Below are positions 44,531 through 47,505 of a DNA stretch of 64,000 bases, piece after piece. This DNA is from Shigella phage vB_SboM_Phaginator. A program made the translations under genes and the position numbers. Below the pieces are notes generated by a model. That model searched no databases. It worked only from the letters and a program-made list of their open reading frames with translations, and had not been told where the DNA came from. The stretch lies in the sequence record OL615012; one strand, 5' to 3'. Numbering within the stretch: the first letter of the stretch is position 1; the number at the start of each line of letters is the position of its first letter.

Positions 44531-45211
44531 TTATTTTAATGTTACGAAAGAAGAATTGCGTGTTTCACGAATTAAAACTGATCCGTCACGGTTAATGTAA
44601 TAAATTAAGCTAAATAAAGTTTGGTGTGCAGAAGCATGCTCAAAACTAGTTGGGTGAGATTTCCAATCAGGAGTTTCAGCAATCCATTGATAAATCCACC
44701 AAGGAACGGTACAAAATCCTGGATTTTTTCCTAATAGTTGAAGATTTGGACTAAAGTTTTCCGGAAGAGTAAATACAGACGGCTTTTCAGATTCAATAAT
44801 CTCAGCTACAGCCTGTTCGAATTTTTCTTCAACAAAAGGAGTATCTTCAATCAAAACTGAGGTATTTTCAGGAATTTTATCAGTTTCTACTACTTCAATT
44901 TTAATGTCAGATTTAACCGGAGAATCAATCAGAAGTGCTGCTTCTGGATTGACTTCTTCATCGTCATATTTTAACCCCTCTGCAGCATCAGCAGCATTGA
45001 TTAAGTCTTTAATAGATAACCCATCAGTCTCTGGCATAGGTTCACTAGCGAGCTTCTGGAGGGCTTCTTCAATATCAACAACGATATTATCAAAAGATTT
45101 ATTCTTTTTGACCTTTATACCAAACTGTTCAGCATATTCAGCTAATTTAGCTTTAGCTTCTTTGTTATCATCAAGAGCCTTCAGCTCTGCAATATAATCT
45201 TTATCTATCAT
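44531..45211 (-). CDS. inh: Inh, inhibitor of prohead protease gp21
   Basis: 226 aa, T4 Inh length and position after hoc. Confidence 0.75.
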   Translation of the reverse strand: MIDKDYIAELKALDDNKEAKAKLAEYAEQFGIKVKKNKSFDNIVVDIEEALQKLASEPMPETDGLSIKDLINAADAAEGLKYDDEEVNPEAALLIDSPVKSDIKIEVVETDKIPENTSVLIEDTPFVEEKFEQAVAEIIESEKPSVFTLPENFSPNLQLLGKNPGFCTVPWWIYQWIAETPDWKSHPTSFEHASAHQTLFSLIYYINRDGSVLIRETRNSSFVTLK

Positions 45212-45224
45212 AATATTTCCTCAG

Positions 45225-45232
45225 TATAAATA
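45225..45232 (+). promoter_or_regulatory. TATAAATA late-promoter box upstream of uvsW
   Basis: Exact TATAAATA 30 bp upstream of the uvsW ATG. Confidence 0.4.
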
Positions 45233-45261
45233 TAGATATATTTATTACATGGTATTTAGAC

Positions 45262-46773
45262 ATGACTGACATTAAAGTACATTTTTATGATTTTAGTCAC
45301 GTGAGAATTGATTGTGAAGAAAGTACATTTCATGAACTCCGTGATTTCTTTAGCTTTGAAGCTGATGGGTATCGTTTTAATCCGAAGTACAGATATGGCC
45401 ACTGGGATGGACGAATCCGTCTGTTAGATTATAATCGTCTTCTTCCATTCGGCTTAGTCGGGCAAATTAAAAAGTTCTGTGATAACTTTGGCTATAAAGC
45501 CTGGATTGACCCACAAATTAACGAAAAAGAAGAATTATCAAGAAAAGATTTTGATGAATGGCTTTCTAAATTAGAAATCTATTCAGGAAATAAAAGAATT
45601 GAACCGCACTGGTATCAAAAAGATGCAGTGTTCGAAGGATTAGTTAATCGTCGTAGAATTCTTAATCTTCCAACATCCGCTGGTAAATCGTTAATTCAAG
45701 CTTTGCTTGCGCGATATTATTTGGAAAATTATGAAGGTAAAATTCTTATCATTGTTCCAACAACTGCTCTAACAACTCAGATGGCTGATGACTTCGTTGA
45801 CTATCGTTTATTCAGTCATGCAATGATAAAGAAAATTGGTGGCGGAGCATCAAAAGATGATAAATATAAAAATGATGCACCAGTCGTTGTTGGTACATGG
45901 CAAACTGTAGTAAAACAACCAAAAGAATGGTTCTCACAGTTTGGAATGATGATGAATGATGAATGTCATCTTGCTACAGGAAAAAGTATTTCATCTATCA
46001 TATCAGGTTTAAATAACTGCATGTTTAAATTTGGTCTATCAGGTTCATTACGTGATGGCAAAGCTAATATCATGCAGTATGTTGGAATGTTTGGTGAAAT
46101 ATTTAAGCCAGTAACGACTTCTAAATTAATGGAAGATGGACAAGTAACTGAGCTAAAAATTAATAGTATTTTTCTTCGCTATCCAGATGAGTTCACTACT
46201 AAATTAAAGGGAAAAACTTACCAAGAAGAAATAAAAATTATTACTGGGCTCAGTAAAAGAAATAAATGGATCGCTAAATTAGCTATTAAGCTTGCGCAAA
46301 AAGATGAAAACGCTTTTGTCATGTTTAAACACGTATCGCACGGTAAAGCTATTTTCGATTTAATTAAAAATGAATACGATAAAGTTTATTACGTATCAGG
46401 GGAAGTTGATACCGAAACACGCAACGTAATGAAAACCTTAGCTGAAAACGGTAAAGGAATAATTATAGTAGCTAGTTATGGTGTATTTTCTACCGGTATT
46501 TCAGTTAAAAATCTGCATCACGTTGTTTTAGCACACGGTGTTAAATCTAAAATTATTGTATTGCAAACAATAGGTCGCGTATTACGTAAGCATGGTTCCA
46601 AAACAATCGCAACAGTCTGGGACCTCATAGATGATTGTGGTGTTAAGCCAAAATCTGCTAATACGAAAAAGAAATACGTTCATTTGAACTATCTTTTAAA
46701 ACACGGCATTGATCGTATTCAGCGCTACGCAGATGAAAAATTTAATTACGTAATGAAAACAGTTAATTTATAA
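45262..46773 (+). CDS. uvsW: UvsW DNA/RNA helicase (SF2)
   Basis: 503 aa; Walker A PTSAGKS, DExH box MMNDECH; T4 UvsW length. Confidence 0.9.
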   Translation: MTDIKVHFYDFSHVRIDCEESTFHELRDFFSFEADGYRFNPKYRYGHWDGRIRLLDYNRLLPFGLVGQIKKFCDNFGYKAWIDPQINEKEELSRKDFDEWLSKLEIYSGNKRIEPHWYQKDAVFEGLVNRRRILNLPTSAGKSLIQALLARYYLENYEGKILIIVPTTALTTQMADDFVDYRLFSHAMIKKIGGGASKDDKYKNDAPVVVGTWQTVVKQPKEWFSQFGMMMNDECHLATGKSISSIISGLNNCMFKFGLSGSLRDGKANIMQYVGMFGEIFKPVTTSKLMEDGQVTELKINSIFLRYPDEFTTKLKGKTYQEEIKIITGLSKRNKWIAKLAIKLAQKDENAFVMFKHVSHGKAIFDLIKNEYDKVYYVSGEVDTETRNVMKTLAENGKGIIIVASYGVFSTGISVKNLHHVVLAHGVKSKIIVLQTIGRVLRKHGSKTIATVWDLIDDCGVKPKSANTKKKYVHLNYLLKHGIDRIQRYADEKFNYVMKTVNL

Positions 46774-46798
46774 GGGCTTCGGCCCTTTGGAGAAAAAG

Positions 46799-47029
46799 AT
46801 GTTACTAGAATTTAAACAATTTCTTTATGAAGCTTCTATTGATGAATTTATGGGTAAAATTGCCTCTTGTCAAACGATAGAAGGTCTAGAAGAACTTGAA
46901 GCTTATTATAAGAAAAGAGTTAAAGAAACTGAATTAAAAGATACTGATGACATCTCAGTCAGAGATGCTTTGGCAGGAAAAAGAGCTGAATTAGAAGATT
47001 CAGATGATGAAGTAGAAGAAAGCTTTTAA
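46799..47029 (+). CDS. uvsW.1: UvsW.1 small acidic protein
   Basis: Track frame starts TTG 46787; ATG at 46799 preceded by GGAG; 76 aa. Confidence 0.65.
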   Translation: MLLEFKQFLYEASIDEFMGKIASCQTIEGLEELEAYYKKRVKETELKDTDDISVRDALAGKRAELEDSDDEVEESF

Positions 47030-47084
47030 ATTAAAAAAGGCCCAACCAAAAAGGAAGGGCCAAAACTATAGACTAAAGGTCACA

Positions 47085-47252
47085 CTATAGCAAAAGTTGT
47101 GTTTCATTTAATTGTTCTTCCGAACTTTCTGAAACTGGTAGTTCTTTAATGTAATTATAGCAAGGCCCAGGATGTACAGGACCTTTGTCTGTTTCAACAA
47201 CCAATGCAGAATCGATTGGAGTTTTACAGACAACACAAATCTTATCTGACAT
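47085..47252 (-). CDS. small Cys-rich protein (CVVC...C; putative zinc ribbon), uvsY.-2-like position
   Basis: 55-aa ORF absent from track; GAGGAG site 6 nt upstream; TATAAATA late box at 47278-47285. Confidence 0.55.
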   Translation of the reverse strand: MSDKICVVCKTPIDSALVVETDKGPVHPGPCYNYIKELPVSESSEEQLNETQLLL

Positions 47253-47280
47253 GATTGTCTCCTCTGAATTATATATCTAT

Positions 47281-47505
47281 TTATACAACTCTCATATGCA
47301 TATCAATGCCCATATCTTTAGAATAAAAATATTCATCAAGATATCCGGCAAATTTTCCTTTAATATAAAGGACATCTTCACCACACGGGTGGTCGGCCAG
47401 GATACGAATATCCTGACGCTTAAGATTATACTTTTTCATTAAGAATTGAATTTCCGTTTCAAATTCTTCTTCATAATTAAAAGCATCATCAATGTTATAT
47501 CTCAT
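47281..47505 (-). CDS. hypothetical protein (uvsY.-1-like position)
   Basis: 74-aa ORF immediately downstream of uvsY with ATGA-type overlap. Confidence 0.55.
   Translation of the reverse strand: MRYNIDDAFNYEEEFETEIQFLMKKYNLKRQDIRILADHPCGEDVLYIKGKFAGYLDEYFYSKDMGIDMHMRVV

Follow-up and report, generated by a model that had tools for sequence, protein, structure and literature searches.

Genomic context of uvsY.-2

The window analyzed here is a 64,000-nucleotide stretch of Shigella phage vB_SboM_Phaginator (sequence record OL615012). Its minus strand carries, at positions 47085 to 47252, an open reading frame (ORF) of 55 codons followed by a TAG stop; the frame and its translation, as given in the initial annotation, were recovered by reading of the strand and from the ORF listing. 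The same annotation described the ORF as unlisted, a label that reflects only an ORF length cutoff and has to be dropped, because the gene is annotated in T4 records as uvsY.-2. Judged by its sequence, the ORF is this long-annotated T4 gene and belongs to the Pfam family DUF2685 and to phrog_1043. The product is identical to T4 UvsY.-2 (NP_049797.1) at 55 of 55 residues. It matches the DUF2685 (PF10886) HMM over its full length, with 119 bits against a gathering cutoff of 25 (residues 3 to 55 on profile positions 1 to 55), and phrog_1043 with an E value of 3.9e-31. As is characteristic of the family, it is a stand-alone protein of about 55 residues with the pattern C-x2-C-K ... H-x3-C and a tail that is acidic and ends in Leu. 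No NCBIfam model matched UvsY.-2, and the term "DUF2685" was not found in the literature searched.

The leftward 25-uvsY transcription unit ends with uvsY.-2, which is convergent with uvsW.1 and uvsW. This order is that of the T4 reference records, which carry uvsY.-2 (NP_049797.1/AAD42525.1; UniProt Q00778) at the corresponding position, with uvsY.-1 on one side and convergent uvsW on the other. The neighbors in the window are a 503-residue helicase, an 80-residue UvsW.1-domain ORF, a 74-residue ORF, the 137-residue UvsY, and baseplate genes. Among 52 related loci, retrieved with an 8-member family alignment, uvsW lies downstream and convergent in 51, and gp25 lies upstream in 50. The upstream gene, uvsY.-1 (74 amino acids; 47281 to 47505, minus strand; identified by phrog_1541 and the T4 annotation), is probably cotranscribed from the uvsY middle promoter; it is far less conserved than uvsY.-2, being detectable in only 10 of the 52 loci. 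Where it is absent, other small ORFs or nothing are found; the Aeromonas 31 and Vibrio ValKK3 phages, for instance, have a YqeY-like "tRNA amidotransferase" there.

A 901-bp query matched 749 phage records, mostly Tequatrovirus, with identities of up to 99.3%. T4 and the window phage share the amino acid sequence and genomic position of UvsY.-2, with no difference at the protein level. T4 has segE between inh and uvsW, whereas the window phage is without segE there, so the window derives from a segE-less Tequatrovirus and not from T4 itself. The short gap (45212 to 45261) between inh (44531 to 45211) and uvsW (45262 to 46773) holds a copy of TATAAATA, the late-promoter box described below, on the plus strand at 45225 to 45232, just upstream of uvsW. 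In the window, uvsW (503 amino acids) and uvsW.1 (46787 to 47029; Pfam UvsW-1) are separate plus-strand ORFs, together spanning 45262 to 47029, whereas the T4 records NC_000866 and AF158101 annotate one 587-residue uvsW with a note on sequence discrepancies. The E. coli genomes searched contained no copy of uvsY.-2, which is therefore not a prophage or host gene. A 98%-identical copy labeled Enterococcus faecalis (P0003) and a 99%-identical T4-like record labeled as a Pseudomonas aeruginosa phage (PV654520.1) probably reflect contamination or host mislabeling.

Translation and transcription signals

The start codon of uvsY.-2 (ATG, 47250 to 47252, minus strand) is preceded by the Shine-Dalgarno sequence GAGGAG (47259 to 47264), separated from it by 6 nt (ACAATC), a spacing within the T4 optimum of 6 to 9 nt (PMC2988022); a Shine-Dalgarno sequence is present at the matching offset in 50 of the 52 related loci. 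Further upstream, an exact late-promoter box, TATAAATA, lies on the minus strand at 47278 to 47285, where it overlaps the TAA stop codon (47281 to 47283) of uvsY.-1 and is directly followed by the A+T-rich GATATATAAT. The T4 late-promoter consensus spans positions –13 to –6, and A at –13 is its commonest natural variant (PMC2988020). With the box placed at –13 to –6 by this numbering, the predicted transcription start is the A at 47272, the sixth base after the box, and the predicted late transcript has a leader of 20 nt. In T4 the corresponding leader is 18 nt, since the window phage has a 2-nt insertion (AT) within 47265 to 47277 (minus strand), between the late box and the Shine-Dalgarno sequence. 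A sigma-70-like site at 47295 to 47268 was set aside, as such sites occur at chance level (5 found versus 7.6 expected).

A single TATAAATA box proves little, because the window contains 25 of them versus 9.4 expected. In the related loci, the exact box is found upstream of uvsY.-2 in 18 of 52 (1.5% of random 60-nt windows), and the ATAAATA core occurs 22 to 40 nt before the ATG in 38 of 52 (2.5% of random 60-nt windows). The cassette of box, Shine-Dalgarno sequence, and ATG accompanies uvsY.-2 although only 10 of the loci have uvsY.-1. The box is absent from the Aeromonas-31, Vibrio ValKK3, and Krischvirus homologues, in which uvsY.-2 abuts the preceding gene. The core kept in 38 loci and the late class of the protein (see below) are indirect support for a putative gp55-dependent late promoter belonging to uvsY.-2. 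Our literature search for T4 transcription start site maps yielded no 5'-end mapping of this promoter, although older T4 papers may document it. The uvsY middle promoter/oriF lies upstream (PMC3016281), and the onset of uvsY.-2 RNA is classed as "middle" (see below), so the late promoter is probably not the only source of uvsY.-2 transcripts; read-through from the uvsY middle promoter likely adds to them.

The 55-nt gap between uvsY.-2 and the convergent uvsW.1 holds a predicted terminator. On the minus strand, the hairpin GGCCCUUCCUUUUUGGUUGGGCC (47039 to 47061; 5+2-bp stem) has a folding energy of –13.6 kcal/mol on its own and is immediately followed by a U6 run (47033 to 47038), and the 66-nt terminator region folds with a z-score of –3.8 relative to shuffled sequences. 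The predicted structure is thus that of an intrinsic terminator, a G+C-rich stem-loop with a U-run directly after it; an analogous hairpin and T-run follow the stop codon in 44 of the 52 loci. This terminator-like hairpin would close the 25/uvsY/uvsY.-1/uvsY.-2 transcription unit. A simple terminator scan did not list it because the internal loop in the stem exceeded the loop limit of 8. A weak palindromic hairpin (CUAUAG...CUAUAG; 47066 to 47090, minus strand) spans the uvsY.-2 stop codon just before the terminator hairpin, and relatives likewise have a second small hairpin near this stop.

The initial annotation had proposed the ribosome-binding site at optimal distance, the exact late box, and the hairpin with its U-run at 47033 to 47061, and all three are borne out. 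Its further proposal that the ORF has a late promoter of its own stands in part: the box is present and its core is kept in most related loci, but the exact box is not universal and other transcripts probably contribute.

Conservation and expression of uvsY.-2

By tblastn, the uvsY.-2 frame was recovered from at least 1,257 records of phages, with identities down to about 40%; the hosts include Escherichia, Klebsiella, Shigella, Acinetobacter, Vibrio, and Aeromonas, among others. Among 1.84 billion representative proteins, a profile search returned 65 clusters at 50% identity, nearly all of them stand-alone proteins of 51 to 67 amino acids, and the frame is intact in the 52 loci, which are independent IMG/VR loci. 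dN/dS values versus the window sequence range from 0.04 to 0.32, with a median of 0.18 (Nei-Gojobori; 273 informative pairs). At the sequence level, the identity of the gene, its conservation, and the purifying selection acting on it are firmly established.

Several longer database proteins were encountered. Those of 100 to 101 amino acids (P0025, P0030, and P0047) result from read-through of the uvsY.-2 stop codon as Gln (…LLIQ…); they are artifacts and not long isoforms, most likely arising from metagenome gene callers that picked an alternative genetic code. One protein of 126 amino acids (P0097/phrog_26998) has DUF2685 at residues 73 to 126 behind an unrelated 72-residue N-terminal extension and could be either a true fusion with an upstream ORF or a miscalled start. 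Neither the 100-residue nor the 126-residue forms change the conclusion on uvsY.-2.

Published data show that uvsY.-2 is expressed and affects fitness. In time-resolved T4 omics, it (Q00778) is classed as "middle-RNA_late-Protein", the late protein having been detected by mass spectrometry (PMC9697503 supplement). By CRISPRi-ART, uvsY.-2 is "Semi-Fit", while uvsY.-1, uvsY, and uvsW are "Not Fit"; the pooled score of uvsY.-2 is modest (1.12; K-S p = 0.12), single guides against the ribosome-binding site score ~2.2, and the phenotype of the ribosome-binding site knock-down is complemented by the protein in trans (PMC11879866). Conservation of the frame among T4-like phages and translation in late-infected cells, the two points on which the initial annotation had made its ORF depend, are both found.

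A predicted zinc knuckle with an acidic C-terminal tail

Conservation within UvsY.-2 was read from an 83-member alignment that reaches down to 35% identity to the window protein. The N-terminal part (codons 5 to 37; 47142 to 47240, minus strand) is predicted, from conservation and AlphaFold2, to be a treble-clef zinc-knuckle module. Residues C6, C9, K10, and C31 are invariant (83/83), and H27 is found in 82 of 83 members; the lone exception is Cys, the swap expected for a metal ligand. G24 and G29 are retained in 80 and 81 members, respectively, and the ligand residues persist in the most distant representatives. The ligand set is likely C6 (47235 to 47237), C9 (47226 to 47228), H27 (47172 to 47174), and C31 (47160 to 47162; all minus strand), a CCHC arrangement through which UvsY.-2 most likely binds one Zn(II). 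The AlphaFold2 model built with the family alignment (mean pLDDT, 78.6; 81 to 89 for residues 1 to 40) consists of the CxxC knuckle, a β-hairpin (residues 19 to 26), and a helix (residues 30 to 37) starting at the H27/C31 pair. As modeled, this is a treble clef, in which the knuckle and hairpin are combined with a helix N terminus that gives the last two ligands. No solved structure or metal analysis was found for any DUF2685 member. The initial annotation had suggested a small metal-binding protein from its cysteines; the three cysteines are indeed conserved throughout the alignment and metal binding is probable, but the histidine ligand H27 had been overlooked.

The remainder of the protein (codons 39 to 55; 47088 to 47138, minus strand) comprises an acidic, Ser-rich linker and a C-terminal motif that we propose to be a docking peptide. 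It is predicted to be disordered: residues 39 to 55 have pLDDT values of 57 to 69, a low confidence consistent with a flexible tail. In conservation, the C-terminal motif, L-x-E-[TV]-[QE]-L-L-hydrophobic, is roughly on a par with the ligands (L48 in 64, E50 in 73, L53 in 72, and L54 in 67 of 83 members). Indels are confined to the linker, which varies in length; conservation of the tail next to a linker that takes indels speaks for the tail being a functional motif. The median charge of the tail is –5, and the net charge of family members ranges from –2 to –9 with a median of –6, K10 being the only invariant basic residue. Such strong acidity argues against nucleic acid binding and for protein binding, and UvsY.-2 would accordingly bind a protein rather than nucleic acid.

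Comparison with known zinc modules and C-terminal tails

The treble-clef modules with which UvsY.-2 was compared are ribosomal eL24/L24e, TRASH, the LIM half-site, PKC C1, FYVE, HIT, and the Vps39 C-terminal zinc finger. UvsY.-2 differs from them in being a stand-alone protein with an acidic tail, and LIM, C1, FYVE, and HIT have two metal sites, whereas UvsY.-2 has a single predicted one. Sequence matches outside the family had best E values of about 0.02 to 0.1, apart from a single match to DUF2175 (1.5e-4), and none came near the DUF2685 score. Among PDB sequences, the family profile matched only a lysostaphin repeat artifact and, nonsignificantly, the Vps39 finger (E = 0.12), and Foldseek against viral structures returned only uncharacterized family members. 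UvsY.-2 is not a LIM domain: it has only four conserved ligands, and a weak LIM match was seen in 2 of 83 members (best E = 0.026). Nor does it belong to the YacG family, as the Pfam zf-YacG HMM gave no match. YacG has four Cys ligands, whereas the predicted set of UvsY.-2 is CCHC. E. coli YacG is a host gyrase inhibitor, whereas UvsY.-2 is a phage protein without an evidenced link to gyrase or topoisomerase; a YacG-like inhibitor design could be suggested by analogy only.

The C terminus of UvsY.-2 (LNETQLLL-COOH) was compared with those of T4 gp43 (SLDFLFG), gp55 (SLDFLYEAND), gp33 (TLDFLL-COOH), and gp32 (DLDDLLNDL-COOH). UvsY.-2 shares with the T4 clamp-binding tails an arrangement of body, flexible linker, and short hydrophobic/acidic C-terminal peptide, as well as an acidic/leucine character, and gp33, like UvsY.-2, has two leucines at its free C terminus. 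However, the clamp-binding core [ST]-L-D-F-L with its aromatic residue, present in gp43, gp55, and gp33, is missing in UvsY.-2. In terms of the T4 sliding-clamp-binding motif (SCBM), [ST]-L-D-F-L-[FYL], the D-F core was found in none of the family members seen, so UvsY.-2 falls outside the clamp-binding class and the clamp idea stays a low-probability lead.

Proposed role of UvsY.-2 and alternatives

We consider it probable that UvsY.-2 is a small late adaptor or competitor that combines a zinc module, a linker, and a docking tail and binds a protein. In this model, the N-terminal treble-clef knuckle would hold one Zn(II) via Cys6, Cys9, His27, and Cys31; a short, acidic, Ser-rich flexible linker of variable length would join it to the tail; and the conserved Leu-rich C-terminal peptide (L-x-E-[TV]-[QE]-L-L-hydrophobic-COOH) would dock on a partner. 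The zinc module and the tail would each touch a partner protein late in infection. Such a design would be analogous to the body-linker-tail organization of gp33, gp55, the gp32 tail, and YacG.

A partner-specific version of this adaptor model, which we regard as unlikely, has the tail occupying the gp45 clamp site of the gp33, gp55, and gp43 tails, or mimicking the acidic tail of gp32, and thereby tuning replication, recombination, or late transcription. The late appearance of UvsY.-2 and its recombination/replication neighborhood are in keeping with it, but none of the members seen has the [ST]-L-D-F-L core with its aromatic residue, and short leucine/acid motifs easily arise by chance. Nucleic acid binding is likewise an unlikely candidate: UvsY.-2 would be a tiny zinc finger acting on DNA or mRNA, resembling phage Mu Com or P2 Ogr, and would tune late expression, recombination, or origin use, a role that fits its position beside uvsY/oriF and uvsW. 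Against this stand the strongly acidic family (median, –6), in which K10 is the one basic residue that never varies and a basic patch is lacking, and the Pfam search, which gave no match to families of the Ogr/Delta or Com type at E values of up to 10. Moreover, uvsY is not adjacent to uvsY.-2 in Acinetobacter and Aeromonas-31-type phages, and knock-downs of uvsY and uvsW are "Not Fit" whereas that of uvsY.-2 is "Semi-Fit".

We give little credence to a counterdefense or host takeover factor, a small acidic zinc protein that might inhibit a gammaproteobacterial enzyme or defense system much as YacG inhibits gyrase by means of a zinc finger and a tail. Takeover and antidefense genes are not usually expressed late, uvsY.-2 sits in a conserved, core-like position and not in a variable accessory island, Pfam YacG is not matched, and the fitness effect is seen in an ordinary laboratory host. 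That the frame is a chance ORF in the 3' untranslated/terminator region of the uvsY operon, yielding no functional protein, has practically no likelihood left. The ORF is very short, A+T-rich phage DNA yields many small ORFs, and one TATAAATA box may be coincidence, but the idea is refuted by conservation in at least 1,257 records, the median dN/dS of 0.18, the Pfam family, mass spectrometry, and complementation in trans.

A more far-reaching reading is that UvsY.-2 is a hitherto unrecognized late regulator whose zinc finger anchors to a component of replication, recombination, or late transcription while the tail competes at gp45 or at a site of a gp32-tail partner; we hold this specific form to be improbable. 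If it were true, UvsY.-2 would determine when, late in infection, the phage switches between replication, recombination, and packaging, and this would explain why knock-down of uvsY.-2 carries a fitness cost versus none for uvsY, uvsY.-1, and uvsW.

uvsY.-2 is already known, having been annotated in T4 for decades, with a Pfam family, proteomics, and a published knock-down phenotype, and its value as a discovery is limited. Few T4 genes whose function is wholly unknown have a fitness effect that can be measured, and uvsY.-2 is one of them. The present analysis makes modest additions, namely, the reading of the module as a CCHC treble clef, the conserved tail motif, and the promoter cassette that travels with uvsY.-2. 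The predicted anatomy of a knuckle, an acidic linker, a docking peptide, and a late cassette narrows the search for a partner, and the question of what UvsY.-2 binds is directly testable.
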